The notes under the pieces were generated by a model. The model was given only the letters and a program-made list of their open reading frames with translations. It searched no databases and was not told where the DNA came from. DNA of 64,000 bases from NCBI GenBank assembly GCA_958009085.1, contig OY253686.1, forward strand, positions 496,001 to 560,000, read 5' to 3'. The DNA is from Protoeuglena noctilucae. Lineage: Eukaryota. This document shows, one piece after another, positions 1 through 64,000 of the stretch. How positions within the stretch are numbered: position 1 is the first letter of the stretch; the number at the start of each line of letters is the position of its first letter. The position numbers and the translations under genes are program-made.

Positions 1-3000
1 CATGGCCGCCGAGCTGCTCACGATCGTCCAGTCGCCGCTGGTGGCGAAGATCGAGCACGTGTTCGTGGATGCGGTGCCGTTCCAGCATCTATTCGGGTAC
101 TTTGCGGCAGATAACCGCACGTGGCGGCCGGGGCTGTTGGAGCGACTGGTGCAGCAAACGGCAGAGGAGAGTGAAATGGAAGATGCGGCGAAGGGAGACG
201 CATCGTTCGGGGACGATGCGCGGCCCGTGCAGCGCGTGGTGGTGCTGGACTGTTCCGCGGAGTCTCTGGCATTAGAAGACGTCGCGCCATTGTTAGCACA
301 TGGCGTGGCGCACCTCCCCAACGGCGCTATGGTGCAGGCCGCGGGGCCGATCGCGTTCGCCTGTGAGACGGAGACGCTCGCAGGCCTGAGCCCGGCGCTC
401 CTCGCCTCCGTCCCTTGCGTCCCGCTCACTGTACCCGTACTCGACCCGACGATTGACAGCGTGCGAAAGGACCTCTCAGCACGGTCCACGTCCTTCTCAG
501 AGCACAATGAGAAACAGGGGGCCGAGTTCCTCCATTCCCTCGCCACCTGGGCCTTCCAAGAGCTCAAGTCGCTCTCTAGGGTGGGACCGATGCACGCAGT
601 GTTGGGGCGGGCGTGCCAAGTCATGCAATCCATCTACGAAGCGACCTACCAGCACGCGAGCGCGGCGAAGGCCGAGGCGCTGCCCGATTGGGCCATCGGC
701 ATCCCCAACTTCAGCCGGACAGATGCACTGAGTTGTTGCGCGTTGGTGTATGGTGCGGTGTGGGCGATCGGCGGCTGTCTCACCCCCGATGAGGGTCAGG
801 AGTTCGAGTCTCGCGTGCGCGACACGCTCCCAAGTAATTTCTGCCGCGTCCCGCCCCCCTCCACGTCCCTCTTTCACAGCATGGTGGATGGGGTGGCGCT
901 CGCACTCGTGCCCATCCCACCTCATGGGCCCGACACCTCGCCCGTGGTGAGAATGCATGGGTGGATGTGATCGCGAGTTAGTGCTATGTTAGTGTTTACT
1001 GATCGCGATCTGGCTGTTACTTGCAAGCTACTACCAGCTACTGCATGTATCACAAAGGACTAGCTGCTTAGTACAACGCTTTGGTACCTCGGGACCGCTC
1101 GCATGCTCGGCCCGGTCCCTCGTCACCTGTTTGCCCGCTCCAAATGTTGATTCGAACCCGCGACCTCTCTCCCGCAGGTCCTGACGCGCAAGGTGGCGGT
1201 GGAGCAGGCAGCGGCGGTGGGCGAGGCTCTGACTTACGACGATCGTGTGTTTGTCCACACGGCGATGACCATGGCAGTCGAGACGGCGGCGCTCATGGCG
1301 CTAAAGAGCTTTTTGCATGTGCCGCACATGTCTGCGGCGGGCACGGAGACGCGGGAGCACTTCGCGCCCATCGTGTTGGGGCCGCCCGCCGCGGGGAAGA
1401 GCGCCCTGGTGCGGGACATCGGTGAGGGAGCGCCACCCTCCCTTACCACCCCTCCCAACAGCAACAGCACCCATTCCCACCTCTCCCACCTCCCCTCTCC
1501 CCCCCCCAGTCCTCGTCACCGGCCACCAGCTCCTGGCCGTCCCCCTCACCTCCTTCGCATCGCCAGAGAACATGTCAGGCACTCTGACCTCCTCCATGCG
1601 CAACGACAGGGGTCACGTGCTGAGGCCCATCCTGCGGCCCAAGGCGGTCATCGTGCTGGACGACCTGCATTTGCCACTGCAGGTGAGAATTGCAATTACT
1701 GAAATGCTTATATTTGTATAGTGAATTATTCTGTGATCGTGCTTGACGACCTGCTTGCGCCCTTACAAACCCTCACCCCCACTGCCACCCTCACCGCCAC
1801 CCCCACTGCCACCCTTGCAACCACCCCCACTGCCACCCTTACAACCACCCCCACTGCCACCCTTACAACCACCCCCACTGCCACTGCCACCCTTACAACC
1901 ACCCCCACTGCCACCCTTACAACCACCCCCACTGCCACCCTTACAACCACCCCCACTGCCACCCTTACAACTACCCCCAGGCCTGCGAGGGCTGCTCGGC
2001 CCACGACCTCCGCACCGACCCCGCTGCCCGCTCGGCCATGCAAGCCTCGGAGATGGTTCGGATGATGCTGGACAAGATGGCGGTGGCAGACGCCACATCG
2101 GGGGAGGCGCTGACGCTGGCCAAAGTGATGATGGCGGGGACAGCGACGCGGTCGGGGCTCTTCTTTGGGTCGAGGGGGAGGGGGGCAAGGACGCTCAACC
2201 ACACCATGTGGTGAGGGGATGCGGGATGCGATGTGGTCACCTTGTTATCGTCTTATCTCATAAATTTTGCGATAAGTATCATAATAATGACTAATTAATT
2301 ACAACACTCACGTTGTACTTGTAATATTATTGCTATTATTGCTATTAGTGATGTAAATTTTGTTGTTATTGCTATTATTGCATTTTATTTATAATAATTA
2401 TAATAACAATAATGATTTCTTACCCCTCCCCTCCCTCCCTAGCCTCTCCCTTCGCGACTTGGAGTCGTGCCACGGCCCCCGGGCGATGCTGCAGGTGTTC
2501 ATCGAAGGGCCGGTGTTCCGGGGCATCGCGTCGCGCATCCTCACGCCCGTGTTCAAGGGACTGCTGCCGCCCACCATTCTATCGAAACTGGGTGAGATGA
2601 GCGAGGGGGTGCTATCGATATCGAATGCTGTGCTCATGACACGGCTGCTTTCCCCGCCCACCGTGACTGGCTTGCTCAATCTGAAGCTGGCTGTCCACAT
2701 ACTCGTCATGGTCAATTAGTCACCCTTTTATATAAGCACACTTCACTATAAATAACATATGTACTACTATGTATACTCGTACTAATACAATATACAATAA
2801 AACATCCATATTACCCCTCTGCCCGCAGTCGAGGCCCTGAAGTGCAGCTTCCGCGACGTCGCCGACTCGGTCCTCAACCCCGCCGCCAAGGTATTCGCCC
2901 CCGTGGTCAGCCTGCACCGAATGGTGGCATCTATTGAGGGAATGCGCGCCCATTTGGAGCTCGCATTCGATGCCGAGAGAGAGGCCGGCCACGCCCGCTC

Positions 3001-6000
3001 CCTCAACGCCATCTCCAAGCTCCGCATCAGTCATCTGTTCGTGCACGAGACGTGCTTGCAAGTGGGCGCGGCGTCTCCCAGCCGGGCCGTAGCACAGCAC
3101 GTTCGCAGCGCGGTGGTGCACGCCGCCTCGCACGTCGTGGCGTTCGAGAACCACACCATGCCCGTGCACCAGGTGAGTGGGGATGGTTGGGGTATAAATA
3201 TAGGGTTTTGATTGTAATTTTTTCGCATCACCCACTCACTGTAATCCACTTACCACCCCATCTACCACCTCATCTACCGCCACCACCCCCCACATACACG
3301 ACCAGTCACCAATCACCACCACCCCTCACCCCACCACCACCACCCCCCCCCCCCCCCCCCCCCCAACCCAGGACTCTGGCGGTTCCGAGGAGATCCTCCG
3401 CACATTGACAGCGGGCGGGGAGCTATCGCAAGGCATGTTGGTGGAAGCGGGGAACAAGTTCCGACAGCGCATGGAGCAGGTGCTATCCACATCCATGTCC
3501 GTGATCAAGGGATTCGTGGACAGCGCGACGCAGTTCAACTGGGCCCCGCTGTCGCTGGCGAGGCTGGCGTGGCCGGGCGCGCATCGGCAGGTGGCGCGAC
3601 TACTGTCGATTCAACGCCTGCCCTGGCCGAGGGGCCACGCCGTGCTGGACGGGCCGCTGGGGTCCGGACGGCACAGCTGCGTGCGGCTGGCGGCGGCTTA
3701 CGCGGGCGGGGTGGTGGTGGATGTGGCGGGGCAGCGCACGCGGCCGCTCACTGCCGAGGCGGTCCTGGCACGTGCAAAGGAGGCCGTGCTCACGTGTCTG
3801 ACAGATATGAAGCGCGTCGTGATGCTCATCGACGTGGATACCGTTCCCCACGAGAGCTTGCACCCTGTGCTGCACCTGATATCGAGCGACACACTGCAGC
3901 CGGGGTTCTTGCCTGACCTGCCCCCCGGCATCGCCTCGGGCCCGGCGGCGGAGATACTGAAGGATTTGGACGAAATGTCGGCGATGGCGGCGGTGGAGCA
4001 GCAGCGCAGGGCGGAGGGGGCGGGTGCGGGTGGCAACGACGGTGGGGTGGTGGGGTCGGGCAATGGGGGTGGTGCGGTGGGGCGGGGCAGCGCGAGCGGG
4101 AACGGCAACGCGGGCGGCCGCGACGCGCTGTCGACGCGGCCCAAGGGCGACCGGGCGAGCGCGGAGGCCGAGCGGCGGATGATGGAGCAACGCGACGCGA
4201 TGAGAGCCGAGATGCGACAGACGCCTCTCATGCTCGCGCGACTGTCGCGGGCGGTGGGCAAGGCGGTGCGGGAGCACCTGCGCGTGGTGTTTCTGGTGGG
4301 GAGGGACCGGGCGCCGCGTCTGCTGTCGCAAGCGCCGGTTCTGGCGTCCCACTGCGTGGTGCAGGCGATCGAGGCCGACCAGGACTCGTATTTGGAAGAA
4401 GCGGTGGGGAACGTGGTGAGTTTGTGTAGGTGATGCGGTGTTATATTTTTACACACATATTATTTTACAGTATGTATGTTGATTTATAATTATTGCAATA
4501 ATATTAAATTACAATAAACTTGGCATTTATTGTTTATTATTTATATATTTGTTTTATTACTGTATTTCACTTATATATCATATCTTTTCCATTCCCTATC
4601 CCCCGCAGGTGGAGCAGTCTGGCTTGATGGAGGAGGATGTGGGCCTGATGGCTCTGGCCAAGGTGCAGGGCATGCAGAGCGAGGTGGAAGCCATCGAAGA
4701 GCAGTTTGCATCTCTCGTGAAATCGTCGGAACCCAAGAGCGTGTACCAGGCGGCAGCAGACATGCACCTCACGGCGGGGCGCTTTTTCGACGACCACGGC
4801 CCAAGGCTCCAGCTGTGGCCGCGGCTGTCAGCCTCCCACCTCATGGACCTCGTCGGTGAGCGGTTGGTATGAGGTGTTCTAATAATGGTTATATGTCACT
4901 GTAATAGCAACTGTAATTGACAGGCCCCGTGACCATGATATAGAGTTACCACCCCACCACCACCACCATTCCACTCCATTACCTTCCCTCACCACCACCA
5001 CCTCACCTCACTCTCACCAACCCCCCATCCCCATCCCTGCCCTCACCACCACCAACACCACCACCCTCACCAACCCCTCACCCTCACCACCACCCCTTAT
5101 CCCCACCCCCCCAACCCACCCCCCCAGGCGCCTACGTCCGCATCCTGAGCTCCGAGCTCCGCTTCATGAAGGAGCAATACGCCATGCGCACCCTCTCCCG
5201 ATCGGAGGCCGCCGCGATGCGACTGAACCTGACCATGGCGCAGCGCATGAGCGCCGAATTGGAGCCGAAGCTGGAGGCGGCGGCGGGGGAGGTGGCGTCG
5301 ACGACGGCGCAGCTGGCGGACGTGCGGCGGCGGCGGGAGCGGCTGATGACGCAGAGCGAGGCGCTGAGGGCAAAGAAAGAGGACGTCAACGACGTGCTCG
5401 ACGGGCAGCTGCAGAAGATCGAAGACGAAGTGCGCAACCGGTACCAGGCGAGGGGTCAATTGGCGATGAATGACACTGTTCAATCGAAATGAGTAACACT
5501 GTTCGAGTAAGATGTTGATCGAGGACAAAGTGCGCAACCGGTACCAGGCGAGGGGTGGTAGTTACCGCTATGTGCATGGCCATCGGTAGCCAACCCCTTC
5601 ACTACATACCATTACCAATGGTAATACCATCTGAAACGAACAATACTTATAACATCATAAACGATCAAAACCCGCACCTCCCCAGGCGTTCATGGTGTAT
5701 TCGGAGAAGCTGGCGGGCATCAGTGATACGGAGATGAAGGAGCTCAAGGCGTACTCCAATCCGCCACGGATGGTGCGGATGGTCATGCAGGCGTGGTGAG
5801 TGCGGTGGGTTTGATGGGGGTCGTGTGGTGAGTGCAAGCCATTATGCAAACCCGCACCTCTCGTCCCCATTGCCCATGACTTTGCCGCTACCCAGCAACA
5901 CGCTTCGATGCGCCTGCGACGAGCCCTTTCGAACTGTCGCTGCGACAAAGCACAATTTTTGTTATCTCACAGGTGCGTCCTCCACCAGATGCTGCCCAAC

Positions 6001-9000
6001 TGGGAGCTGGCCCGCGCCTCGCTGATCCGCAAAGCGGTGCGGCAGGCAGCGCCCACGTTCGACGTCGCGGCCGTGACGCCGCAGATGGTCCGGGACCTGC
6101 AGGTGAGGCGGAAACGGATAATTTGTGCGAATATTGCCGCGTTGGGAGCGTCCGGAAGGTGCAGGCGGGAATGCGGAGGGAGAGTTGGGTGGCGTGACAG
6201 TGGCGATGAAAACGAGCGTGGAGGACGTATGGGGCCTCGTTGGGAGCTCGTGCAGCTTGTGGATAACAACAAGACCGCATTAAACGCTTGTAGCGCATTA
6301 CTATTCGACTTTGTGTCTCATAACGCTTTCTTTCATCTTTAACATCTCACCAAGCAACCTCACCATCTCCGATGCGCATTTCTAATCAAGTTCCGCTTAT
6401 TAATAAGCCATCGTTTTCCCGCAGACGTACGTGACGGAGCCCGAGTTCCGCCCCGAGGCCGTGGCGCAGGTATCGCGGACCATCCGCGCCGTGGCCGAGT
6501 GGGTGCTGAGCGTGCACGACCTCGCCATCGCCATGTTCCAGGTCAGTTATGAGAAGGCTTGTCGTGATGCTAGTAGATGCGTGCGTTCATAGAATAGACA
6601 GAGTGGGTGCTGAGAGCGTGCCTTATGACCTGGCCATCCCCCACGTGTTTCAGGCGAGACTTGGGACGTCGATTGCCATGATCACTGTCCCTAAGATTAT
6701 TGTCAGAACTATTATCATTCATCATTGTTACCACCGCCCATCCCCCTCCCCCCGCCCCCAGGTCAAGATCTCGAGCGGCGAGCTGCAGCACAAGACGGGC
6801 TCCCTGGAGCACATCTCCGCGGTGATGCAGGCCAAGGAGGACGCCTTGGACGCTCTCGATCTGGAAGAGGTTTCTTGCAACCGCATTCTGGCGAACGCGC
6901 ACCGCACGCTGGAGGAGCTGTCGGCGAAACGGGAGCTCCTGGCGCGGTCGATCGAGCGGACGGAGAAGCTCATGAAGGCACTGGAGGCGCAGGTGAGGGG
7001 TGCTATTGTTAGTTTGATGATGAATTGAGTAGCTCATGAAGGCACTGGAGGCGCAGGTGAGGGGCGTTGTGTGATGCTTCGCGATATGTGCATACATACT
7101 CACAGTGGAGGCGCTTAAGTGACCCCATGCACTGCTCCACTCACCTCACCCCCACCCATCATGTCACTCACCCCGCTCACCCCACCCCACCCCTCACCCC
7201 CCCCCTCACCCCACTAACCAACCCCCACCTACCCCCACCCCCACTCCACCTCTCACCACCCCACCCCACCCATCACCCCCAACCTCAGGCCGCCTCGAGC
7301 GAGGACTGGCACCTGGCTTCTGACGAGCGACTGATGTGCCTGGAAGGAGACTGCCTGATGGCGGCCGCCTGCGTCACCTACCTCGGCCCTCTCCCCGCAT
7401 CGCTGAGGGATGACCTGACACGCCAGTGGAGTGCCAGTCTGACCGACCTGGCCGTGCGGCACAACCCGGACTTTACTCTTCACGATATGGTGCACGCCAC
7501 GATGTTCCGGGAGAACATTATGCCATCCACGATTCTCTTGGAGGGGTTGGAGAAGGACAATCTCGCCATGGTGTCGCTGGTGAGGTTTGTGGTGATTAGT
7601 ACTAGTAGTACTACGGGTGGCGATACTACAGCAAAAGCTTGATGGTAACTAGGTCACCACTATTATAATCGGTAGTGCAGTGATGGCCATGGGCAGTGCA
7701 ACGCTCTTAAGCCTTGTCTATGTAGCATCACATTCACTCAATGTAAGCGCTCAACTCACCTACCATCCCTCTCCCCCCACCCCCTTTCCACAGACCCACT
7801 CCATCCCCCTGCTGGTCGATCCGAGCAACCAGGCCTTAGCTGCCTTCCAAGCACTGCGCAAGGGCGTTTATTGGTATCGATTCACCTCCGCCACACCAAA
7901 CTTGGCACACGAGCTATTCAAGGTATTGCACGATGGCGGGTGCGCGCTCTTGCAGCTCCACGGCGACCCCGGGGAGCCCTCGAGGCTGCAGCCGGTGATA
8001 TCGGCGCTGCGTGCCCATTCACGTACGGCAAGCATCGTGTCGCGGTACCCCCGGCCACTCGTCGCCTACACCAACAGCCTCTGCCCCACGCTGTCGGAGG
8101 TGAGGGAAGGGAAGGGTGGGTCGGGGAGTTGGGGTGATGAATATGAAATAGAAATATATGCATGATATATGCCGATTATTGCCAAATGATGCATTAATAC
8201 GTATGTCTAAATTTGTTTGTTATGTACATATTATTGATACTAGTAATATATAATCCCAAACCTCCCGCAGACGGTGTCCGAGGCCTTCTGCGTGATCAAC
8301 TGCCTCCCCGACCAGGGCGACCTGCGCAACCGCATGCTGTCGGAAATCATGAAGCTCAAGGACCCCACGCAGGAGGCCAGGTGTGTTGGTGTGGGGAATG
8401 CTAACAATATTACTAGCAGTATTTTTGCTTTCAACAATTTTTAAAAAAATAATTTGATAATAATAAAAATAGATATCAGTTTGTAGGGTGAGTTCCCGCA
8501 CATACATCCTCCCTTACACCCCTCTTGTTACACCTTTCTTTCAGGCACCGTGAGGTGACGGCGTTGATGGACCAGAACCGCCGCACCGAAATGGACGACA
8601 GCGTTCGGCTAATGACGCTGCTCCTGCAGCACCGGTCCAAAGTGTGGCGGAGCGAGGCGGCGATGGGGGAGGTGCTGGAGGTGTGCGACCGGTTATTGGT
8701 GACGAGAGACCAGATGCAGGTGTTCCAGAGCGAGCTGCTGCGGCTGAGGGAGTTCGACAAGCGGTGAGGGACACTGTTATGAGAAAGCGTTGGCTATCAC
8801 GCTTCGTCACTTGATGGGCTCAGTTTCTATGCACTCACATTCCATTCTATCCAATTATCCATTCATCTTTCCATTTCCATCACTCCATTTCATCCCCAGC
8901 GACGAGGACCTCGCCTCCGTTGCCGCCGCCATGCACTGCCCACCACCCAGTCGCTCTCCAATAGCATATAAATTGACGATCAATTCACTTATCCAATCAT

Positions 9001-12000
9001 CTTATCCCGCTCGCCCTCTCAGCGACGAGGACCTGGCCTCCGTGGCCGCCGCCGTCTACTGTTCCGGCGCCGTGCTCTGGCGCCGCGTGCCGTCACTATT
9101 CATCGACCTCCCCGCATTCGTGGAACTATTCCGGGAAGCCAACTCCGCGCGCGCGGGGACGAGGGGAAAGGGCGCGAGGTCCTACAGCCCATCGCCGGGC
9201 AGGACGGTGCAGATGCTGTACCGGTGAGGGCGTGGTAGTACTGTTACTGTTGTCGTCATGGGTCTTTATTATCAACAAGATTGTAACAATCTCCCCTTCC
9301 CCTTTACCCCTCTCAGCGCCCTTGCCCCCAACGCCAGCAACGAGCAGGCCAACCTGCTTGCCCTCGCGTTGTCAGCCGGCCTGAGCGTGGCGAGGGGAGA
9401 AGCAACAGTCGCAGAATTGGAGTTTTTCCGGGCGTGGCTGGACGCCGCGTTTCAGAAATCGACGCAGGGGGCGATGGTGCAGGGGAGCGCGACGGACCTG
9501 GCAGCGGCGGCGAAGAGGCTCGGGGCCTGGATGGCCAAGTACCCCGTGCAGGCGCCCATGGTGAGAGCGGTTATTGGTAGTATTATTACTATTGTTATTA
9601 TTACTGTTATAGATATATGGTAGTAGCAATAGTAATGAGTGAGGGGTAGGGGAAGGCGAAGTACCCCGTGCAGGCGCCCATGGTGAGAACAGTTATTACT
9701 ATCACTATTACTTTGACTATAACTATGACCATTTCTATCACTATCACTATCACTATTACTGTTACTGTTACTGTTACTATTACTATTACTATTACTATTA
9801 CTATTACTATTACTATTACTATTACTATTACTATTACTATTACTGTTACTCGCAGATGGGCATCGGCGGCCGCGTGGCGTCCAATCTGGCGGCATGGGAG
9901 GCGGCCCTGGCCAGCAAATCCCCGGGGGACGCACTGCCAAGGCCCTACGACACGCAGCTCACGCCGTTCCAGAAGGCGAGGAGTGGCGCTGTGCGGATAT
10001 CATTTATAATTATTTAATCCTATTAATGCATTAAAAATAACTAATATATACCCTTTCTGACGGCCGCTTGCGCCCGTTGCTCGATAATTACAAATTATAT
10101 GATAATAACAATAATGTGATATTATAACTGTTCGCAGGCGGTGGTGCTAGTGATCTTGGAGCCCGAGATTCTCCCCACGGTGGCGCGGTGGTTCGCGTGG
10201 AAGCTCTTCCGCCCCACGCCCCCCAGCAGCGCCATCGAGAAGATCGTGGTGAGTGTTTGGGATGTGAGGATAGTTGTTATAACGATTGTGGTAATTTTAT
10301 GGATTATTTTCAATCATATGCAGCGGCAGTGATAAGCATGTTAATATCAACGCACCTCTCTTCTCCCCTCCCCACTGCTCCCTCTCCCCTCTATTCCCGC
10401 AGAACGTGGCCATGGCCATGCCCACGACTGTCCCCATGATGATGTACCTCAGCAACGAAATCGGAGCCGTGCCGGTGCTGGGGGCCGCCAACGCCGCATT
10501 CGAGCACAGGTGAGGGGATGCGCGATGTGTCATTGTAGTCATGCATGCTGTTGTCATGCATGCTATTTTTTTTTAGTATTCCTTATTACTACATCAAGCA
10601 ATCGTGCTAGGAAACCTCCCTCAATTCGACCCAAACTCAACCATATCCTTTCTCTTCTACAATTTTAGTATATTCCCACTCCTCCGTATCCCCAGGATCG
10701 CCCGGGAGGCCGCGACCGGCCAGCCCAGCCGCGGCAGCCTGGCCCGCACCCCCGCCACCCCCGCCGCCCCCCCCACCGCCGCCCCCGCGCCCGGCAAGCG
10801 CCTCAAGACGCCCGGGAAGGGAATCCTAGTCCGCTGCGCTGGCGAGGGCACGAGCCTGTCGATGCAAGCGACGGTGCACGAGGCGCGCAAGAGCGGGAGC
10901 TGGGTGGTGGTGCTGAATGCGGGCCACGAGCCCGACATGATGCTGACGCTGCTGGCGGCGCTGGAGAGGGACCATTCGGGGTATACCCATCCCAACTTCC
11001 GCCTCATCATATGCCTGAGTCAGCAATCGGATTGCGACCTGACATGGGCGCTCACGTCACAGGTGTGAGGGGGGTATGAGAGGGGGTTGAGATGATATGG
11101 GGATGATTTGGGGATGGGCTGAGTGTGAGGGTAGTGGGCTGTTATCATTTGACTCATCTCACCACATCTGTGGTAACAATTGCTCGTGATTGCAGGCCTG
11201 CGTACACGGTGTACGTGGAGCATTACTTGCGTTGCATCCATTAAGTTATAAATATTTAATACTCTCTACTTTGCAATCGTCGCAGGCGTACACGGTGTAC
11301 GTGGAGCTCCTCCGCAGCCCCAACAAGGACCTTTCCACGCTGCTGCACGTCTGGGAGTACATGGCGCCCAAGGTGTTCATGTGAGTGGCAGTCATTGGCA
11401 AAGACATAATTGATTTGTCAGTTGCGATGATGACGGTGTGACGGTTAGTTGGGATGGTGACAGTTGCACTGCCATCTGCCCTTATTGCCACCCCCACTGC
11501 CACCCATAACACCACCCCCACTGCCACCCCCACTGCCACCCTCAACAACACCCCCACTGCCACCCCACCTACCCCCCAACACAGGGCCACCCTGAGCATG
11601 ACTCAGAAAGCGGTTAAGCGCGCCTTCCTGAGCGTCGTGGCAGCGCATGCGTCGATATCGTGGGAACAGACGTCGTCTCACTTCAGCGCGGTTCTGGCGC
11701 CCAATGCGTCCCGGGCGTGGGTGCCCACGCTCTGGGACATGCACCGGGCCATCGCGGCCATGCAGACCATCAAGGCGAGTGTGGGAGTGGATAGTATAGT
11801 GTATATGAACGAATGACCAATGCTTTGTCCATACGATCAAGAGACTCTTTTCCGACGCCCGCATGGGCAACTTTGTGCAGTATCATAATTCACACATTAT
11901 GATAAGACAAGATAGTAACAAACAATCCCTATCCTCGTCTCCGACACCCGCAGACCTCCGCCCTCTTCTCCGACGCTCGCATGGGCGACTTTGTGCAGTG

Positions 12001-15000
12001 GTGCGGCTACGGCGCCCTGCCCCGCACCTTCATGTCCGAGCACGCCATCACCAGAACATTCGAATTCTCCCATCTCGACGATTCGAAAGCGCCGAGGACG
12101 TTCATCGCCAAGGCCATCGCGCAGGCGAGGGGGGATGGGGGGGGGGGTGTTACGCGACGTGGGATCGGGAAATAATGATTGTAGAATGGCAATGTCATGG
12201 TTACCAATAAACAACGTCTAACAATAATTAAACCCAGACAGGATACTAAAACTTGACCACAACGCCACGTCACCATCTTCAAATCCCATTATCAAGTCCC
12301 CTTAACCCCTCCCCCCATCTCCAGGCCAAGTTCCACCGCCCCCCGGAGGCCCCCTCGGACCCCTCGGTCCCGGAATCGAAAGCGACTACATTGGCGGTGA
12401 TGGTCAACGTGATCAACGAAGTGTTGCCGGAATCACTCACGTGGCCCATGGCGCTGGGGTCGGCCCACACGCCGCACCACATCGGGGACTTTGCGAGCGC
12501 GAGGGCGGTGGCGGACGCGCTCGCGTTGATGGTGGACGGGACGATGGCGGTCGACGCGGGTGAGTGGGAGTTATGGATAACTGATATAACTGATATCAGT
12601 TATATGTGGTATTGGTGGTTGGGACCACGGCTGTCCCAGAATGGCCCCCACCCCTCGTTCACATATGCCATTCATATTCATACCAATATGTACATAATTA
12701 CTCTTCCCCCCCACCCCGCAGCATGGCTTGCCGAGAACGGCCCGAACCCCCCCCCGCCACGTCGCCACCGTCGCCCCCCCCATATTGCGCGCCATCCACA
12801 AGGACAGCCCCGTCACACGCGCTCGACGTCATCGCCAGGATACAGGGGTACCTGCAGGCGCTGCAGACTGCGTCGGGTGAGCAGACGGTTTATTGATATC
12901 ATTGATAGTTAAGGTACGATTACATATTTATAGTATTGATAATTTATCATTATTACAATTGAATTACTATTACTACCATTACTACCATTACTGCTGTGCT
13001 ATATTTCACACTCCTTACCCCACCCCCCACATCCCCCCAGACGCCCTGCATGACGTGGGCGACGCCCTGACAGAGGACGCCGACGACCCCTTGCAAGTGA
13101 TCGTGGGGCCGGGACTGACCGTGGAGCATCTGGTGGTCTTGGAGGCGAACATGCTCGCAGCCGTGATCGATCCGGCAGTGCAGGACATGACCATGGTGCA
13201 CGGGGCACTGGCCGCGGGGTCCGAATGCGCGTCGCCCGTTGCAGGCGAGAGAGGGTTGGGGGGGTGTGCAGATGTGTGCGATCGTGCTTTGATAGTTATG
13301 TTCGTGCTTTGGTAGTTATACTCGATACATTTGCTCTGCGCTCTGCCCATTCACAGCCCATTCACTCATACCCCACCACCACCCTCCTCACCAACCCCCA
13401 CCCCAACCCCCCCCAACCCCCACAGCCCTGCTTGTGACCGACCGCCTCACCTGGCCCCTCCCCAACGCCTGCATCGTCACCAGCACATCCGACTGGGTGG
13501 AGGAGGTCTGCCGACGCGCGTTGTACATCAAACGACTGTCCGATCGTGCTATCCCAGGCTCAGCTGTCCCATCGTGGCGCCCCAGCCGCCCCGAGCCCAC
13601 CACCATCGCCGTCATTGACATATCCGCGCTGTGTCGCCCCGAGGCACTTTCCCTCGACATGTATGTCTATCTAAAGGAAGACATCGAGAGCGTGCCCGCG
13701 ATTGGTGCCGACGAGATGCTGCTCAAGTGTATTGTCACCGATTGCGACTATGAGGACGAGGTGGTCGATCCGAGGCCGGACGGAGTGTACCTGACGGGGG
13801 CGTATATGCTGGGGGGGATATGGGACGCGAGTGACGCCACTATGCTGCCCCACCCGACGGGCTCCACGTTGCCCCGCGTGTTTGTGCCGCTCGAGAAGGA
13901 GGTGAGAGATGGAGAGTGGGGTTAATTTTGATTTAATAGTAATAGTAATTGATAGTAGTAGGGATTGATTGGATGCTCCCGCTCGTGTTCGTGCCGCTGG
14001 CGAAGGAGGTGAGGGAGTGGGGATGATATGGTCATGAATTGATAGTGATTCGGACTGAATGGATGCTGTTGCTCGCCTCTCATCCGGTATCTGAGAAGCA
14101 AAGTGTCACCAGCACTCACTGATATTCCCATCCATATCTATATCCATACCCATATTCATATCCATGTTCTCCTCTCATCTCCTCTCATCTCCCTTGCAGT
14201 CCGAGAAGCGCCTGGTGACCGGCAAGGACCTTCACCGCCGCGCCGCCCCCGCCCCCCGCGTGCGCGACCGCCGCGCCACCGCGAGCCTCGCCATCGCACG
14301 CGCCAGCGTCATGGGATTGGGTAACGACGACGATGATGATAATGACGATAACGCGCGCGAGAGCGGGGGGTCGGATCTGGGGCCGGAGGCGGCAGTGGCG
14401 GACGACACGCCGTGGGCCCGGTTCAGTGGGGGTGGGGAGGCGAAGGGTGGTGCTGCGGGGGCGGCGGCGGCGTCCCCACGGCGCAGGGCGAAGCGGGATC
14501 CGGTTCCCTCGGAATTTTGGGCCCCTGTGGCGGCGGCGGGGGAGGGTGGGGGGCCGGGGAGCGCGATCGGGGGTGCGAGTGCGGTGGGGGCGCGGAGCAG
14601 GGCGGGAGACGGGGCGCGGGGCAACGCGGCGGCGTTTGAGGGGCGGGACTGGTCTTTCTTGGCGAGGATACCGGTCCACGCGGCGCCGGCGCTCAAGACG
14701 CCGCATCTGAGGTGAGGGAGTGATGGTGGTTCTGGGAGTGGTTGTGAGGGATGAGCGGCGTTGTTGGGGTGGTTACAGCGGGTGGCAATGAGGTGATGAA
14801 GTGGTGGGGGTGCACAAGGCAGCCAGTCTTGTCACACGGATCAACCCCCCATCACCTCATCACCTCGTCATCCCACCCCCCACCCATCGCAGGGGCACCA
14901 CGGTGCTCTACATCCAGTGCCAGACCAAGCCCTGGCTCGACACCATCCTCGGCACAGCCGCGGCCGTCCTCGCACCCCCACCACCCGCCCCCGCCCCGAC

Positions 15001-34013: not shown

Positions 34014-34770
34014 AGTGCAATCACACGGGCGCGGGATGCCAGTGTTAGGCTGTGCCTGTGGCGTCTAGTATTGACGAGTGATGGATCGAGGGTCCCATGC
34101 TTGAACTAAGCTACATGTTAAACTCTGATTCGACGATGTAACAAACAGAATAGACCGCAGTACTACTGTCGTCTTGGCATCAAACGACGACAAACCTACG
34201 ACTCGCTTATGGGTGGCGACTGCGGCGAACGTTGCCCAGTTCACCGGCTACCCCACCAGCAGAATTTTGACTAGAAATACGAGGCGGTGATAAACGTGCT
34301 TTGCAGTCCTGGGTCGATCGGTCCTGTGTCATCGCGCCTTTGCTCTGTAACACGATTGGTCGTCCATTCAAGTGCTGAGTAGAAAATGCAACTGGCCAGA
34401 AACGTCATTACTAGGAGCCTACCCATGGAAGTCCGTACAATACAGAGGATATCCCATTCATGTGATACCCTCTGTCTTGCACAGAATTTCAAGGGTAGGC
34501 TCGTAGTACTGCCGCTTTTGGCCGGTTGGTTCCTGTCCTGCTCATTAGGACTAATAGGCAATATTGTTTGAGAACAAAGGGCTGGCCAGCCATAAGTAGT
34601 AAGTACTAAGGCGAGCCACTAGGCAACGAACGATGGTAAATGTAGCACGAGCAGCAGCAACGACATTCACAATATCGCATGAAACGGAAATGTTACAGCC
34701 CGGAGGTGTTACAGTTAGGCTACCAGGATGGTGAGGGCGGTGTGCGGCATCGTGCTGTGCCCGCGTCACG

Positions 34771-43086: not shown

Positions 43087-43104
43087 AGCAAGACGCTGTG
43101 GGGA

Positions 43105-43195
43105 GTGGGGGTGGCAGTAGGGGTGGCAGTTAGGGCGGGTGGGGGGGTGGGTGTTAAGGTGGCAGTGGGGGTGGCAGTGAGGGTGGGGGTGGGTG
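43105..43195 (-). repeat. CCCCCACTGCCACCC minisatellite family copy (G-rich on +), just after the PhoD stop codon
   Basis: GGGGTGGCAGT units are the reverse complement of the 1771-1979 unit. Confidence 0.8.
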
Positions 43196-51737: not shown

Positions 51738-53000
51738 TCACGCCAGCCCGTGCGTCCTTGCCACTTCCGTGACCGCCTCCTCCTGGTGAGGGTGGAGGCC
51801 GTTGGCCGCCGGCCCAGCCATGTCCAGCGCGGCCTGGAAGGGGTCCTTAACCCCCGCCGGGTTCGTAAAGGGCTGCCCCGGGGTGGACAGCAGCCCTTCG
51901 ATAAACCGCAGGCACAGGTAGGGCGTGTGCATGGGTGAGTAGCCCCCCTCGTGCACCGCCAGCAGCCGCCCGCCCGCCAGCTCCTCCGCGAGCGCGCGCA
52001 GGCGGCAGCCCAGGTCATAGAAGTCATTGCCCGTCAGGCCCATGCGCGCGAGCGGGTCAAACGCCCCCGCGTCGATCCCCGCAGACACCACGACCGCGTC
52101 GCAGGGGCCGAAGCGGCGCAGCGCGGGGTCCACGATGCGGTCCCACGCGCAGCGGTACGCCCCCCCGCCGGAGCCGGGCGGGAGCGGAATGTTGACCGTC
52201 GTCCCCGCCCCGTCGCCCTCCCCCCGCTCCTCCAGCGCCCCGTGGTGCCTCGCCCGGCCCGTCGCATGCTCCACGGGCTGCGGGTAACACCCGCTCTGGT
52301 GCAGGGACACGAACAGCACGCGAGGGTCGCCGTAGAAGGCGCGCTGCGTGCCGTTGCCGTGGTGCACGTCGACGTCGACGATCGCGACCCTCTTGGCCGC
52401 GCCCGTCGCCAGCGCGGCCGCCACCGCCACGGCCACGTTGCTGAAGATGCAGAAGCCCTGGGCCTGCCCGGGCATCGCGTGGTGACCCGGGGGGCGACAC
52501 AGCACGTAGGACAGGCGCTCCTCAGATGCCGCGTCCGGCCGCAGCACCCGCGCGAGCGCGTCAATGCAGGCGCCGGCCGCGCGAGAGGCGATGTCGAAGG
52601 TGCGGGGTCCGAAGTACGCCTCCTCGCCAATCGCGCCCCACTTGCCGGCGGTGGCCGCGACCTCGTCCACGTACGCGGCCGTGTGGACGCGCTGCAGCTC
52701 CTCGCGCGTGGCCGGCCGGGGCAGCCCGGCGTCGTGGAGGAGCGGCCCGCCGTTGTCGGAAAGCATTCCCGCGTGCTCCATCATCCGCGCGCATCGGCGC
52801 TTGGTGTCCGGGTCGTCCCAGTGCGGCGTCGGATCGACGTCCGGGTCCACGCCCCCGGCGGAAACGTGCCAGAAATACACGTCATGCGTGTGGAAACGCA
52901 TCTCGGGCTGGGCCGCGGCGCCGCAGCGTTGCGGGGATCTGGAAGCAGGAGACGCGCGCGGGGGTCCCCTGCGGGTCGCGGAAGAAGGGCAGTCGGCCAT
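51738..53000 (-). CDS. Zn-dependent histone deacetylase-family amidohydrolase (bacterial HDAH-like), single exon
   Basis: RPPGHHA, GFCIFSN, DVDVHHGNGTQ, SLHQ, NIPLPPGSG, SAGIDA..DPLARM, HEGGY in one uninterrupted ORF. An alternative ATG is at 52901. Confidence 0.93.
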   Translation of the reverse strand: MADCPSSATRRGPPRASPASRSPQRCGAAAQPEMRFHTHDVYFWHVSAGGVDPDVDPTPHWDDPDTKRRCARMMEHAGMLSDNGGPLLHDAGLPRPATREELQRVHTAAYVDEVAATAGKWGAIGEEAYFGPRTFDIASRAAGACIDALARVLRPDAASEERLSYVLCRPPGHHAMPGQAQGFCIFSNVAVAVAAALATGAAKRVAIVDVDVHHGNGTQRAFYGDPRVLFVSLHQSGCYPQPVEHATGRARHHGALEERGEGDGAGTTVNIPLPPGSGGGAYRCAWDRIVDPALRRFGPCDAVVVSAGIDAGAFDPLARMGLTGNDFYDLGCRLRALAEELAGGRLLAVHEGGYSPMHTPYLCLRFIEGLLSTPGQPFTNPAGVKDPFQAALDMAGPAANGLHPHQEEAVTEVARTHGLA

Positions 53001-54256
53001 TCGGCCCGCACGTCGTATGATATGATCCTAACGAGGCCACGGCGCGGCGAATCGCGGGCCCGAGACTCGCGCGCAGCGCATGGCTCGTCGCGAGATGGGC
53101 GCACCTGGCCAAGGGTCCGCCGCGGGTCCGTGGTCGCGCAGGTGCACCGATGGAGAGCGCCCTCAGCATATCGCATGGAAAGGAGCCCGAATGGGGTGAC
53201 GATGGGTCGTGTCCGCGGCTTGTTCTTCGCGTTGCCTGGGGCAAGGGACGCCCTGCTTGAAACCGGGTGACGGTCCAGGTCGGGCGTGGAGCGGGGCACG
53301 CGGCAGCCCGCTTACATCACAACCCTTGGCGCTGGGCTGTGCTGTTCTGTGTCCAGCCGGGACTGACAAATCTGGCGAGTCCGACTGGTATTTTTGTCCC
53401 ACTGATGCCTTCGTAGCTGCCAACATTCGTTCCGTCATCAGTTCGCAAGGCGCGCGTGTCTGGCGTTGCACCGATCCCTGCAGCTGAAAGATTCGAGCTC
53501 GATTGAGGTGAGCGGAAGGAATCCTTCACCGATCGCTCTGATGACAGGAGAGTGGGTGTAAATGGTCATGTTTGTGATGGGGGAGGGTGACTTGGATCCG
53601 TTGAGGCCGCGAGATGGGGGTTTTACGGTTGCCTTGCAATGGCCCTTAATCCTGCCTCGTCTTCCCGTGCGGGGAAGTTTTGCCACGCTCCATCGATACG
53701 ATTGTATAATGTACGTTAGGCAGCCGTCCGACAAGGCGCCCAAACCAACCAGCGCCACGCTTTCGTATGGTCAGAGTTGTTAGCATGCTTCGTGATTTCC
53801 CGCTCTTCCTGCCGCCCCCTCTTGCCTTCTGCGCGCACACTGTACACTATGTTGCAGATACAAGCCTGAGGCTGGTTTGGATCATGCTAGCGCCTCGAGG
53901 ATTGGCGCTGCGGGGCATGCATCGTTTGGCAGAGCACAGTTTCCATGCTGGCCTTGCTTTCGGGGCTATCCTCCTAATCATGGGCTCATCGTGTTCCTTA
54001 CCTTCACAACACTGTTCCAGTGCTAGCAAGCCCCGGTGGGACGGTGCCTCAACACCAAGCCTTACACTGTCTGCTAGCCCGCACCGTCGCTGGCAAAGCT
54101 GCCCATTACCGCTTGCTAAACAGCGCTGACGCTTCCGTCTGCAGGCAACTTTCGATTTCCCGTCGTCGCCGCGTGCGAAACGCGACGAAGGGAAGCCTGG
54201 TTGGCAGAGAGCGAACGTCTTGGGCGCTTGGGTCCCGTTGACAGGTCTGCGTCGAC

Positions 54257-59059: not shown

Positions 59060-59590
59060 CGCTGACTAATCGCAAGTGGCAACCAAGTACAACTTGATGA
59101 CGCATGATCGACATGATATGAATTGGCATACATGGCATGGCTTGGCATGGCACGTCGCGGCCAGCATTGGCGATGCGACTTTGCAGGCTCGCGGCTCGCG
59201 GCGATCTTTTCCTCGGTTCCCTGGCGGCCTCTTTTGAAACCGTCCCAGTTGAGTCGAGGCTGTGTCCGCGCATGGCAGAGGGCGCAGAGGGCGCAGTGCG
59301 AAGGGATGGCGCGCAGCGCAGGCTAGCTGTCCGCACACTGTTCAAGGCTCTGCAAGGCTGCGGCTACCTCTCAAGGGAGTTCTATACAGCAAAGCAAAGG
59401 CTGCAGCTGCCAGGCTATGAATTCGCTCAAACCCCAGGGCAGTGTCGGCAAAAGCAGTGAAACACCAGTACAGCAGTGAGACAGCACGGGAGCATTGGCT
59501 CACTCCTCCTCATCCCCCCAGCCGGTGGTACCACGAAGCAGTGACACATCAAGCCACGGCTGCCCCCCATCTCTCCATCACCCCCCCCCC

Positions 59591-62500
59591 CTAACCCAGC
59601 CGGTGGTAGATGTCACAAACGCCCGTTCCCACCGGCGCCACCCTGCCCAGCACCAGAGCAGAGGATGGGGTGCGGAGGTCGTCCACCGCTCCCTTGAGCG
59701 TCGCATCGGTGAGGAACTGGGAGGCCGTCTCGAAAGACATCTGTGCAGTGGGGAGTGGGGGTGGGGGGTTGTTATATCTTGTTGTTGTATATGTAACTGC
59801 AGGTGATGGAGTGGCACTGGTGAGGAACTGCGAGGCTGTAATCGAGGGACATCTGCACGTGGGCGATGGGTAGATGCAGGGGGTTGTTGAGTGCAATGTA
59901 TGCGGGTGTGGGTTTGGTGTACTGATGTGCTCTGCTCTGCCCGTGCCCCCCTGTCACGACCATATCTAGACCATACCAACTACACTATCGCTTCGCAGCA
60001 CGTCACACACTGCATCTCATATCCCCACCCCCTTTCTTGCCTTGAGGAACGGGCACGGCGATGAGTCGATGCCGATGCGGTTCATGGGTCGATAGGACCC
60101 CAGGAAGGTCATGTAGTCGGCAATGAGCGAGAGGTGGCGGGGGTCGACCGCGATGCCGTACGCGGCAAAGACGGACTGGGGGGGTTGGGATGGGGGGGAT
60201 GGGGTGTTGAGTGTGTTTGTCAATTAAAAAGCGGTGTTGAATGTGTGTAATGGGGAGCGAGAGAAGGGCAGTGAGGGATGGTACGCGGCGAAGAGGGGCT
60301 GGTGCAGTGAAGGAAATCGTGAAAGTCGCCCAGTGCTATTTACTAATTTCAATTAACCACGCCATATAGTTCAACTCGCCTTGACCTCGTGGACGATGGT
60401 GGCCCTTGCGGCCTCGACCCCGTAGTAGCGCAGCATGGTGCCCACGTCATTGGTTCGAATCTTGCTGAGGGAGGAGAGGGGAAGGGGACACGGTCAAACA
60501 TGTTGGGTCCATTCCGCTTTCTGCTCTTAGTCACTCAGCCCACTGCTAGGCAACCACTGGGTCATTCGCAGCCATTCAGCTCATCACTCCTCCTACCACA
60601 GCTCATCCTACTGATCATTGCTAGCAAGCAATCCATCACTCACTTGACGTCCACCACGCCATCTCAGCCAGTCCCAGACTCACTAACAAGCACTACTAAC
60701 AACAGCACTATTACACTAAGCAACTACTCACTTGACGTCCACCACGTCATCCGCCCCCAACGCCGCCTCGACGTTGATGCCGTCCGTCTGCACCCTTGCC
60801 GGACCCTCCCCACCCGCCCCCTCCCCCAGCACAAAAACCTTGTCGATACCGGGTGTAATGCGGACGGGGGTGGCCACGGCCGCTTGCTGTGCCAACTCCA
60901 AGATGAGGAGCTTGGGGCTGTCGAGAGGGAGGGTGACTGCGGTTGGCAGTGGGGGTGGTGTTAAGGGTGGCAGTGGGGGTGGTAGTAAGGGTTGGCGTAG
61001 GGGGTGGCAGTGGGGGTGGCAGTGAGAGCGAGGGGGTAGCTACCATGCTCAACAAGCTATCATTATTATCCCATCCCATCATCTCCACCCCCACCCACCA
61101 CTCACTCGACACCTCGCACCGCCACGCCTTTCCGTCCGCCCTCCCCGTCACCGCACCCCCATCCCCACCCCCGCCCCTCCCCCGCCTGTCCCCCCCTCTC
61201 CCCGACCCCTCCCCCTTAACAATCCCCATTCTCCTCTTCTCAATTGCGTCATTACCACCGCCCTCGTCCCCCGATGCCCCACTCCCGCTCTCCCCATCGC
61301 TGTCACTGCCATCGCGCTTTGCAGTGGTTGCATTCCCCTCCCCCATTCGACGCTGCGCCCTCTCCGCCCGCCTCGCGATCGCCTTATCCTCATCGTCCAT
61401 CTCCTCGTATGTCTGAGGAAGGGGTTGTGTTTTGGTAATATTGGTTGATAATATATAGTATTATCATTACTACTACTGTCAATGATTATCACCCATATAA
61501 CAAATCTATCAAACTTAAGCACGATTAGTTACCAATACATCGCAGTGCAGCGTCCCGACACCCAAAACTCTCACCTCCCATATCGCAGCCACCAACACCC
61601 TCGACCCAACCCAAGCATTAACAACACCCATGCAACTACAATCAAAAGAACAGAATCACCAACCACCCCCCCCAACCACCCCCCACTCTCTCCCCACAGA
61701 CCACACCCCTCACCTTCATCTCCCTCCCGTCCCCATGCCACCGCCTCCGCCCATCCCCCTCCTCCTCCCCCCCCTCATCCTCATCGTCATCGTCCTTATC
61801 CTTCTTCTTCCCCATTTTCATATCCATTCCCTTATCCTTATCTTTGCCCTCCCCACCCATCTCCCCCTCCCCATCACCACCATCCCCCTCCCCGTCACCC
61901 CCATCGCCATCGCCACCCCCTTTTACATCGAACCGACCCATCGCCTCCTTCCCCCCCGTCTTTCTCTTAATCTCCGCCTTTATCGCCGATTTCAAACGGG
62001 GGAGGAAGCGGGATTCGAACGCAGACTCGATCTCGTGCCACGCCAGAGACGCTTCGGCGGGGTAGGCATCCGATGGGTAAAAGTCCAAGCAGACGCGGTA
62101 CAGGCTGCGATTGAGGGGGAGGGAGGTGGATAATGATAAATGTTGCAATATTACAACAATAATTACAATGTTACAGTAGTAATAACGTTAGTTTTTATAA
62201 AAATATAAATATTATCAAAATAACAATAATATTGCAATTTAATTATTATTACAGATTCTCTTAAAAAACCCCCCCATTTATCAGCCCCCAACACATCTCT
62301 CACCGGCTCCTCAGTCCCCCCGCGTCGTTTCTGGCGTCGGCCGCCGGAAACTCCTCCACCCGCATCCCCGCCAGCACCTCGGCCAGCCTCAGCTTGCGCA
62401 GCTGCGTTGCCAGCGCCGTCGCCTCCGTTATTCCCATGTTATGTCTCACGGGGAGTGTCATGACGGGGGTCTTGCATGTCATGGCCGCTGTCATGAGGAT

Positions 62501-64000
62501 CTCGCGCAATCGGGGGATGCCCAGCGTCACGTTGGCCTCGCCACGGCCGGCCATGTGGAAACTGGGAAGGGAAAAAGAATAAGGGTTGTTGTTAAAGCGC
62601 TAGTTGGTGTTCGTGCTGTTTGTTGTGAGAGGTGCCTGGAGGGTGGGGGGCGTTGTTTGCGTAACTGGCTGTCCCCAACGACTGCCCGGCAATCACCATC
62701 AATGCATCGTCGATACAACTTGTCAATTATCACTATCACATATCATATATCACCCCTCACTCACGTGTTGAGAGTCATCTGCGTGGACGGCTCCCCCAGC
62801 GACTGCCCGGCAATGACGCCCACGGCCTCTCCTGGGTCTGCCATCCCCGTCAGGTACTTCAAATCCATGAGATGGGAGAAGGAGGAAGGGGCTGGGGGGG
62901 AAGGGTGGGGTGAGGGGTTGAGGGTGGGTGGGGGTGGCAGTGGGGGGGGTAGCTACACAACACAAGCAAACATCACCAGCCAGCAAATCAACCAACCACA
63001 ACACCAATTCCATCCCCATTCCCAATCCCAATACTCACTCATGACCCCCCCATCAACCCCCCCGCCCCTCGCCCCCTTCCCCTCCGATGCCTGCTTGAAA
63101 CGCCCCCCCTCCTTTGTCAGAAACTCGGCCACCGCGTCCCCGTAGCTTTCTGGCACGCATCCCAGCGCCGTGGGCGGATACTGGCACTGCACTGGCAGGG
63201 CCCGGTCGACTGACTCGGGGCCGTTTCTGGCGAGGGCCTTCTGGCGGCGGCGGCGGGCGTGGGAGACCTGGGAAGGGGGGGATATGATGGGGGATAAGTG
63301 AGTTAGGGAGAGTGGGTGCAGGTAATTTAAAAGATAGGGGAGTGAGAGGGGGGTGATTGGGTGGAGACAATGCATGGACAGCCAAGCACCATTCGCACCC
63401 CTCTCCACACTATTAACAATCAACATGTTTTGGATAAACACGTTGACATTCACTCACACTCTCACACCCATCTCTCTCACCTGCCCCTCAACGACCCCCC
63501 CCTCCCCCCCCACCCTCCCCGCCCCCAGCTGCTGCGCCACTCTGGCGGCGTTGTCTGCCAGAAAGTCGAATCGCCTCGCGTAGGAAGCGCGCATGACATC
63601 CGATCCGTCCTCGCCATACACGAATTGCACGATGGAGCCATCGGAGGCGTCGCGGACTGAGTTAGGGGGGGTGGGGAATCGTAATTTAATAAGGTATAAG
63701 GGTTGGTGGTTGCTTGATAGTTATGGCTAATGGAGCTATCGGATGCGTCGCGGACTGAAGGGGGCGGAGTAGAAGGTGGGTGAGGGTGGTGGTGGTGGTG
63801 AGGGTGGGTGTGGATGGCCGTGAGCGCCTCCAGGTTCTTAATCAGTCACAATCGCTGCATATCATGCATTGCATATCTATAATATACCATAATCTATTAA
63901 ACACCTATAACATCTATAACTAATAACTCACCCGTCGCGTCGTAGGCCACCGTGAGCGCCTCGAGGTTCTTGATCAGGCACCGCTGCAGGTACCCCGACC
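59591..64000 (-). CDS. RPA1: RNA polymerase I largest subunit, 3' part (5' part beyond the window), multi-exon
   Basis: [62 protein letters not shown] (Pol I-type), [46 protein letters not shown]. Confidence 0.96.
60944..61025 (-). repeat. CCCCCACTGCCACCC minisatellite family copy in an RPA1 intron
   Basis: GGCAGTGGGGGT units. On the transcribed strand they are C-rich and lie near the acceptor, as in dynein. Confidence 0.8.

Follow-up and report, generated by a model that had tools for sequence, protein, structure and literature searches.

Why do introns in one stretch of the Protoeuglena noctilucae genome contain copies of the ends of the exons beside them? The stretch (GenBank assembly GCA_958009085.1, contig OY253686.1, positions 496,001 to 560,000 of the forward strand; 64,000 nt in all, here called the window and numbered from its first letter) carries these copies, which we term echoes, mostly in two genes. 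An inspection of the bare letters (the original prediction) had ascribed them to a local duplication or template-switch process centred on exon-intron junctions. We find that the feature is real and well supported, that part of it arose by tandem duplication of whole units, and that the remainder may reflect short templated patches. The explanation we prefer, at a probability of roughly 0.58, is that DNA straddling an exon-intron border has been copied head to tail, 55 to 134 nt away, leaving a spare exon end in the intron, after the manner of the duplications called "mirages" in amphioxus.

The window has a GC content of 54 to 68% per 4-kb bin and contains intron-rich eukaryotic genes, and the locus is present in marine metagenomes and metatranscriptomes. 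Exon-intron borders were assigned with our own Viterbi model of coding sequence, introns and splice sites, applied to both strands and retrained on its own output. Of 10 junction ends seen in RNA contigs, this model recovers 9 (13041, 13244, 13426, 13901, 14200, 14711, 14893, 15433 and others); it overlooked exon 12721-12875. It predicts 143 donors, 117 of them GT and 26 GC, whereas GC makes up about 60% of donors in Emiliania huxleyi (PMC4028052), which was therefore discarded as a possible source, as was Pelagomonas with its 0.45 introns per gene (PMC9481584); in the GC-AG intron at 13245-13425, the GC donor at 13245 is confirmed in RNA contigs of two runs. As for the gene labels of the original prediction, Pfam lends weak to moderate backing to a divergent dynein heavy chain at 1-15.4 kb on the plus strand (AAA lid, E 6.7e-5; AAA_8 and Dynein_C below cutoff) and to an Rpb1-family polymerase subunit (RPA1-like) at 59.6-64 kb on the minus strand (Rpb1 domain 5, E 1.6e-5, below cutoff). 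The label "F-box" found no support, and the sole backing for "monooxygenase" is one sub-threshold FAD_binding_3 match (E 0.023).

All 13 exon/echo pairs for which the original prediction gave positions do align, with identities of 17/25 (68%), 22/30, 27/36, 28/33, 30/35, 33/36, 34/37, 37/43, 38/40, 26/30, 41/55 (gapped), 30/30 and 34/34 (100%). A blind scan of junctions (score at least 24) recovered 11 of them; pair 14090/14200 fell under the threshold (core 9/10), and pair 12625/12721, whose exon the model had overlooked, lay outside the scan and scored 23 by direct alignment, just under the threshold. Six more pairs that had been announced for the RPA1-like gene without coordinates were located at 63950/63818, 63632/63730, 62780/62658, 60726/60638, 60152/60277 and 59700/59811, and this gene holds an additional borderline match of 14/14 at 59595/59517. 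The pairs are as follows.

1647-1768, plus strand: donor-side pair; exon end 1647-1682, donor 1683, echo 1733-1768, period 86; 27/36, junction-scan score 35
5417-5556, plus strand: donor-side pair with a GC donor; exon end and GCGAGGGGT 5417-5456, echo 5517-5556, period 100; 38/40
6497-6654, plus strand: donor-side pair with indels; exon end 6497-6542, echo 6601-6654; 42/54 gapped, score 44
6963-7064, plus strand: youngest donor-side pair; 6963-7000 (exon end and GTGAGGGG), echo 7027-7064, period 64; 37/38, with 34 nt identical (6967-7000 and 7031-7064) and an AT-rich spacer of 26 nt
8897-9062, plus strand: acceptor-side whole-unit tandem duplication; echo 8897-8939, exon start 9020-9062 (first exon base 9023); core 37/43
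9529-9697, plus strand: donor-side pair; 9529-9575 and 9651-9697, period 122; 43/47, core of 30 nt identical
11200-11307, plus strand: acceptor-side pair; echo 11200-11221, exon start 11286-11307, period 86; 22/22
11845-11999, plus strand: acceptor-side pair; echo 11845-11881, exon copy 11963-11999 beginning 9 nt inside the exon; 34/37
12625-12750, plus strand: weak acceptor-side pair; echo 12625-12654, exon start 12721-12750; 22/30, score 23
13875-14224, plus strand: RNA-verified intron 13902-14199 with a donor echo (13982-14014, of exon end 13875-13907; 28/33) and a weak acceptor echo (14090-14114, of exon start 14200-14224; 17/25)
32618-32740, plus strand: donor-side true tandem repeat ("F-box" gene); period 55, about 2.3 copies, real donor 32645 in the first unit; core 33/36
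49176-49389, minus strand: donor-side three-copy series ("monooxygenase" gene) in intron 49008-49360; exon end 49355-49389 (donor 49360), echo 1 at 49265-49299 (30/35), echo 2 at 49176-49197 (19/22, also the top self-alignment of the intron)
59517-59855, minus strand: RPA1-like acceptor-side pair; exon start 59700-59743, echo 59811-59855; 36/45
59595-59608 and 59517-59530, minus strand: RPA1-like borderline donor-side 14-mer; 14/14
60152-60302, minus strand: RPA1-like acceptor-side pair; exon start 60152-60179, echo 60277-60302; 23/28
60638-60751, minus strand: RPA1-like donor-side pair; exon end and GTGAGT 60726-60751, echo 60638-60663, period 88; 25/26
62658-62817, minus strand: RPA1-like donor-side pair; exon copy 62780-62817, stopping about 15-29 nt short of the donor, echo 62658-62696; 33/40 gapped, core 20/21
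63632-63758, minus strand: RPA1-like acceptor-side pair; exon start with TCAG 63632-63660, echo 63730-63758; 27/29
63818-63981, minus strand: RPA1-like donor-side pair; exon copy 63950-63981, stopping 18 nt short of the donor, echo 63818-63849; 29/32

That these matches exceed the background was evident from scans blind to the list. A seed-and-extend search for repeats 25-400 nt apart returned 32 direct repeats and 1 inverted repeat, and a second search (30-300 nt, tandem arrays masked, hits merged) returned 27 direct and 3 inverted. The 27 comprise 11 that are tandem or of low complexity, 14 that pair exon with non-exon sequence, 2 in which both copies are non-exon and none in which both are exon; one non-exon pair (62673/62794) sits in a low-scoring exon of the polymerase gene, and the other is a repeat with a 31-nt period. 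When a 36-nt query of 30 exon and 6 intron nucleotides was matched to its own intron (score at least 26), 15 of 199 junctions gave a match, compared with 0/199 for reverse complements, 1/190 for queries drawn from the exon interior (64-100 nt in) and 2/995 for introns other than their own. Lengthening the query to 53 nt and searching all of the own intron gave matches at 19/184 junctions, as opposed to 2/552 after introns were swapped.

Nor are the pairs an assembly artefact, because contigs from an unrelated marine metagenome (run X5, from a different study) carry 8 of the 11 dynein pairs unchanged: they span 1647 (record 15), 5417 (record 18), 6497, 8897, 9529 (to 9691), 11192, 13875 and 14090 with 0 differences. 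For pairs 11845/11963 and 12625/12721 no X5 piece occurred among those listed. The identical pair 6963/7027 is the one place where misassembly or collapsed haplotypes might be suspected, in that it breaks contigs built at k=31 and is bridged only by a 90-nt unitig (6971-7060) at flank-like depth in run X1, which may be the source sample; for the set as a whole we give such an origin practically no credence.

The echoes share a consistent anatomy. They are direct and local and always lie on the intron side, the exon copy being always contiguous with the exon. On the donor side, about 20-36 nt of exon end, the GT or GC site and 0-15 nt of intron are followed by a spacer and then the echo; on the acceptor side, the echo, often with (Y)AG, is followed by a spacer and then by AG and 22-56 nt of exon start. 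Periods fall between 55 and 134 nt, although 30-300 nt was searched, and show no bias toward multiples of three. Introns with an echo have a median length of 275 nt (n = 17) versus 186 nt for those without (n = 170), about one unit longer (P = 5e-4).

Within this common plan, two structural classes can be told apart. About half of the echoes are whole-unit tandem duplications, in which the exon end is repeated together with the first or last 30-90 nt of the intron; gapped alignment places the junctions at 9023, 13902, 9561, 49360, 59740, 60175 and 32645 in this class, and here the whole period is repeated. The similarity runs from -43 to +56 at 9023 (79/113), from -32 to +42 in the 13875 unit, from -32 to +45 in 9529/9651 (63/77) and over 54/70 positions, with a partial third copy, at 32618-32740, and the spacer is collinear with deeper sequence at 13875 (z 6.6), 8897 (z 5.0) and 14090 (z 3.8). 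The rest are sharp copies of 21-47 nt set deeper in an otherwise native-looking intron, with no similarity beyond them: 5448 (38/40), 6993 (37/38), 11286 (22/22), 11954 (34/37), 60731 (25/26) and 62794 (20/21 core). The first five of these share only 22-40 nt of their period, and at 5417/5517 the copy ends sharply, the 60-nt spacer being unrelated to deeper sequence (z -0.4). Tandem Repeats Finder (TRF) missed every junction pair and reported no two-copy unit of 55-134 nt confined to an intron. Some spacers and flanks have repeats of their own. The spacer at 5457-5516 contains an internal direct repeat of about 22 nt (ACACTGTTC...), which hints at further small slippage events inside spacers, and the second half of the intron with pair 9529/9651 is filled by an (ATTACT)n-type microsatellite (9694-9850) with a 78-84-nt higher-order repeat, at the edges of which (9691 and 9857) the contigs of both DNA runs end.

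Simple tandem duplication with subsequent decay was initially rejected on account of the sharp pairs and was then partly reinstated by the gapped alignments. A single process may nevertheless underlie both classes. A short stretch of DNA across an exon-intron border would be duplicated directly, leaving the intron with a second exon end that in most cases includes the splice site. One way in which this could happen is that a polymerase jumps back about 100 nt during replication or break repair; were synthesis to continue from there, a full tandem unit would result, and were it to return after 20-50 nt, it would leave a short patch, the echo itself being the inserted piece. The splicing machinery would presumably keep the outermost, exon-attached site, so that the inner copy would become a neutral pseudo-junction and decay. 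The association with junctions would be at least largely a matter of survivorship: copies internal to an exon would break the reading frame and be lost, and introns of about 190 nt would leave little room for a unit of about 100 nt that misses both borders.

We favor one process because the spacers of the short class are native in their strand composition and because the periods of the two classes overlap (64-132 nt for sharp pairs, 55-134 nt for tandem units). Across 82 model introns, the first 80 nt or so have more G than C (C 0.16-0.22) and the last 80 nt or so more C than G (G 0.11-0.18), and 11 of 11 short-class spacers show the skew proper to their own intron end (P = 0.0005 versus random orientation). 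A spacer whose composition is normal for its place suggests that the echo, and not the spacer, was inserted. We had also considered spacer composition as a mark of strand-specific synthesis, an idea that was dropped once the same end-specific skew was seen in all 82 introns.

The same evidence bears on the converse possibility, that break repair inserted unrelated filler and duplicated 21-47 nt of the target, in which case the spacer would be a foreign insert and the two copies a long target-site duplication. The spacers of sharp pairs are indeed unrelated to the neighboring intron, and 15 of 17 spacers exceed the deeper intron in AT content (GC 0.26-0.49 versus 0.25-0.69). A precedent exists in the green alga Ostreococcus tauri, in which integration events brought in 55-83 bp of DNA of unknown source and, in direct orientation, duplicated 518 bp of the target (PMC8002553). 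Those end-joining-like scars resemble the present pairs in combining filler with a long direct duplication; they differ in having arisen in laboratory transformations with vector DNA, and the spacer composition seen here argues against random filler. Randomly oriented filler would hardly give the own-end skew in 11 of 11 cases, part of which could be accounted for by selection against AG near acceptors, and the agreement between the periods of sharp pairs and of tandem units would have to be a coincidence. We therefore regard filler insertion as improbable.

Less probable by a wide measure is the insertion of introner-like or other mobile elements beside splice sites. Several marine algae have introners, whose splice sites can be drawn from duplicated target sequence (PMC9860276); like the present case, they involve marine protists, extra intron DNA and a duplicated target able to supply a splice site. 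They form sequence families, have target duplications of 3-9 bp and constitute the whole intron (PMC9860276). Within the window, no sequence is common to different spacers or to a spacer and the remaining DNA; a blastn-short search of the 17 spacers against the window returned only microsatellite-like 12-17-mers and no relatives. The duplications span 21-134 nt, unlike target-site duplications of 3-9 bp at intron ends, one copy of each repeat lies mid-intron, and the introns extend well past the duplicated part.

Is the process aimed at junctions, as the original prediction supposed when it spoke of centring? Such centring may not be needed: with units of about 100 nt and introns of about 190 nt, uniform duplication followed by purging of exon damage already predicts a junction excess, and geometry together with purifying selection may explain the link. 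We simulated the uniform placement of units of the observed sizes in the two echo-rich genes, discarding events that damaged exons and adding decay with indels, and obtained a predicted ratio of detectable intron-only to junction duplicates of 0.54-0.65.

Several findings nonetheless weigh against our preferred explanation, and we gather them here. In the two rich genes, with masked repeats excluded, there are 11 junction pairs (score at least 30) and 0 intron-only two-copy duplicates of 55-134 nt, an outcome with a probability of about 0.006 under the simulated ratio, or about 0.03 if introns were shorter before duplication; some real preference for exon ends is compatible with these counts. 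Every echo of the short class consists mainly of exon sequence; none is purely intronic. The distribution among genes is uneven, with echoes at 9/59 junctions in the dynein gene, 6/17 in the RPA1-like gene and 2/125 in the others (Fisher P = 1.2e-5). Simple tandem duplication with neutral decay does not fit the sharp pairs 5417, 6963, 11192, 60638 and 11845, because with copies so little diverged a duplicated spacer would still be obvious; a template switch as the origin of these pairs can only be inferred, because no allele without the echo was seen. Use of the outer splice sites was observed at one intron only and in assembled contigs, which drop rare isoforms. Finally, all statements about exons and introns in this report rest on our own gene finder unless RNA is cited.

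The first of these findings would be accommodated by copying that really targets junctions or exon ends and builds introns outward from them, for example through breaks or stalled synthesis tied to transcription or splicing, or through repair that prefers a GC-rich exon end as its template. In its favor, 14 of 14 unmasked exon/non-exon pairs have their copy in the adjoining intron, and one of the two non-exon pairs (62673/62794) joins them once its low-scoring model exon is reclassified as exon, leaving a single independent non-exon pair, that of period 31; moreover, short echoes always derive from the last or first 50 nt or so of the exon, and the absence of unmasked intron-only duplicates departs from the uniform expectation. 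On the other hand, the same dynein introns hold four C-rich minisatellites (period 35-78) and an AT-rich repeat with a 78-84-nt period, all of which had been masked; if the masked intronic minisatellites are counted, the ratio is in line with the uniform model. The depletion of intron-only duplicates, which had looked strong, was weakened by the simulation and by these minisatellites, and the test was made post hoc on a 64-kb sample. We know of no documented copying mechanism that is aimed at junctions. On this balance, we hold a junction-aimed process to be possible but rather unlikely. The uneven distribution among genes has a compositional counterpart: the two echo-rich genes (15/76 junctions versus 2/125) are those with the most AT-rich introns, with an intron GC content of 0.46-0.50 versus 0.53-0.64 elsewhere.

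Many echoes retain an intact-looking splice site, as had been claimed. Scored with our own position weight matrices, the echo site matches the real one at 7 of 11 scored pairs, comprising 5 donors (real/echo 7.2/7.2 at the GC donor 5448, which is duplicated intact, 9.1/8.2 at 6963/7027, and 5.7/5.0, 9.1/9.0 and 7.3/5.8) and 2 acceptors (5.4/7.3 at 9023 and 7.3/6.6 at 63632/63730). Four echo sites are weakened or lost: 32645 (3.2 versus 6.0), 1683 (-8.7 versus 9.0), 11286 (-7.8 versus 6.6, the AG having gone from the matching position) and 14200 (-7.2). The reported gradation from identical to heavily decayed copies, and with it a range of ages, is borne out by identities from 68% to 100%. Mismatches between exon and echo number 12/147 at first, 8/142 at second and 23/144 at third codon positions, an excess at third positions that fits an echo drifting freely and an exon changing mainly at silent sites; G or C in the exon faces A or T in the echo 26 times, and the reverse holds 13 times.

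As to which copy is spliced, an answer is available for intron 13902-14199. RNA contigs of two metatranscriptome runs from one study (X9 and X10) join 13901 to 14200, skipping both echoes (as aligned, 13899(+2) to 14198(+2)), and the outer sites are thus the ones used at that intron, as seen in contigs. An RNA contig piece also begins at 12721, the exon copy of pair 12625/12721. Because intron 13902-14199 holds both a donor and an acceptor echo, an older, shorter pseudo-intron appears to be nested inside it.

It might be argued that the echoes are functional, that is, decoy or recursive splice sites under selection that tune splicing or yield unproductive isoforms. Many echo sites score as well as the real site, the echo presents AG-GT or AG-GC in 3 of 7 donor pairs and could serve there as a recursive site, and the identity in 9529/9651 is uneven, with a core of 30/30 and poorer flanks. 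Identity nonetheless grades smoothly from 100% to 68%, several sites have been lost (1683, 11286, 14200), the periods lack a multiple-of-three bias, the mismatch pattern is that of a freely drifting echo, and no RNA joint at an echo site was found among the joints listed. We consider a function of this kind very improbable.

The original prediction knew of no standard feature class for such echoes. A class does exist, namely the amphioxus mirages, together with a variable number tandem repeat (VNTR) in intron 7 of human F7. Mirages are described from the globin genes BflGb6 and BflGb9 and from Adh3, TnC and PGBD5, with units of 10-72 bp (Adh3), 60 and 108 bp (PGBD5) and 150-160 bp (globins); they occur at 5' and 3' borders, most units carry AG/GT with splicing undisturbed, and it has been suggested that new introns may come from them (PMC3087553, PMC3902484). 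Like the present pairs, they repeat directly, with the authentic exon-intron border as their first or last unit (here, 19/184 versus 2/552 after permutation and 0/199 for reverse complements), they affect both kinds of border, their 10-160-bp units overlap our 55-134 nt, and their copies contain AG/GT signals and range from perfect to imperfect. Normal splicing is kept in mirages, and RNA contigs show the outer sites in use at one intron here. Unlike ours, they come from a chordate, form arrays of 3-6 units where we see mostly two copies, many of them decayed, and are strict tandem units, whereas about half of the echoes are short copies with an unrelated spacer; the density here, about 10% of junctions (6/17 in one gene), compares with a handful of reported mirage loci. 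Copy-number instability, a hallmark of mirages, is only hinted at by the three copies at 49360 and the 2.3 or so at 32645; runs X1 and X5 show no indel differences among those listed.

The human F7 repeat has a 37-bp unit and begins across the border between exon 7 and intron 7, with splicing at the upstream site (PMC1557585). It offers a real donor followed by silent identical pseudo-donors, of which the most upstream is chosen, comparable to the outer-site use at 13902; it is a single locus of 6-9 copies in which site choice was established with minigenes, versus contigs at one intron here.

Related ideas concern the gain of whole introns. Gao and Lynch reportedly dealt in 2009 with internal gene duplication and intron gain. 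Intron gain by tandem duplication of an exon segment containing AGGT has been reviewed (PMC3443670), and it likewise involves a short internal tandem duplication, the extra copy being taken up into an intron by means of the redundant splice signals. In the present case no new intron arises: the duplicated AG-GT belongs to a border that was already there, and the only effect is a longer intron. Nor do these introns stretch from the first copy's GT to the second copy's AG with coding sequence continuing on both sides; what follows the echo is non-coding (in-frame stop after 7064), and the introns continue for 50-230 nt past the echo. Literature searches over a limited collection of papers gave no report of an exon-end echo pattern in an alga. 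New here are the lineage, the predominance of two decayed copies, the short-patch class and the unusual density.

The window holds other repeats. A dispersed intronic minisatellite based on CCACTGCCACCC lies at 1779-1964 and 11494-11565 (plus strand) and, as the reverse complement, at 60965, 61002 and 62932, with a G-rich form at 43104-43187. Where it occupies the 3' part of an intron, in plus- and minus-strand genes alike, its sense strand is rich in C; the copy in the 5' part of one intron is G-rich. The CCACTGCCACCC motif is probably common genome-wide, because DNA contigs of X1 and X5 jump between its arrays. The only strong inverted repeats in the short-range scan, at 42035-42181 and 34389-34528, have 69-nt arms, complementary at 62/69 and 55/69 positions, that enclose loops of 9 and 2 nt, and are candidates for a hairpin, an element end or a terminator.

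Pfam also identified a histone deacetylase (E 3.5e-72) and RCC1, PhoD-like and WD40 genes. The deacetylase is class II-like and lies on the minus strand at 51744-52967, within a single exon of 408 codons; its closest database relative is 61% identical, and most other top matches are bacterial-type "AcuC-like" proteins at about 44%. Judging from these matches, protein databases represent this lineage poorly. A search with the dynein exon 7289-7579 against metagenome contigs found no relative.

What the echoes mean for the biology of this organism depends in part on how they arise. Should introns be built outward by copying that prefers the last or first 50 nt or so of exons as its template, which we think doubtful, each event would push the prior junction copy deeper, and much of an intron would consist of stacked, decayed exon ends and splice sites; the same process inside exons could create new introns, giving a genome-wide, still active and transposon-free route of intron growth and birth, and natural pairs of identical splice sites would reveal how the cell picks the outer one. 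On the mirage-type explanation that we prefer, the density is itself of consequence: about one junction in ten carries an echo, and one in three to six in some genes, and if this holds genome-wide, the organism would be a natural laboratory in two respects. It would bear on how introns lengthen and originate without transposons, for which echoes date successive duplications within single introns. It would also bear on the spliceosome's choice between identical neighboring sites, several real and decoy pairs being identical over 30-38 nt and lying 64-122 nt apart. In practical terms, programs for gene prediction and spliced alignment can settle on the decoy copy, and k-mer assemblies are interrupted at identical pairs such as 6963/7027.

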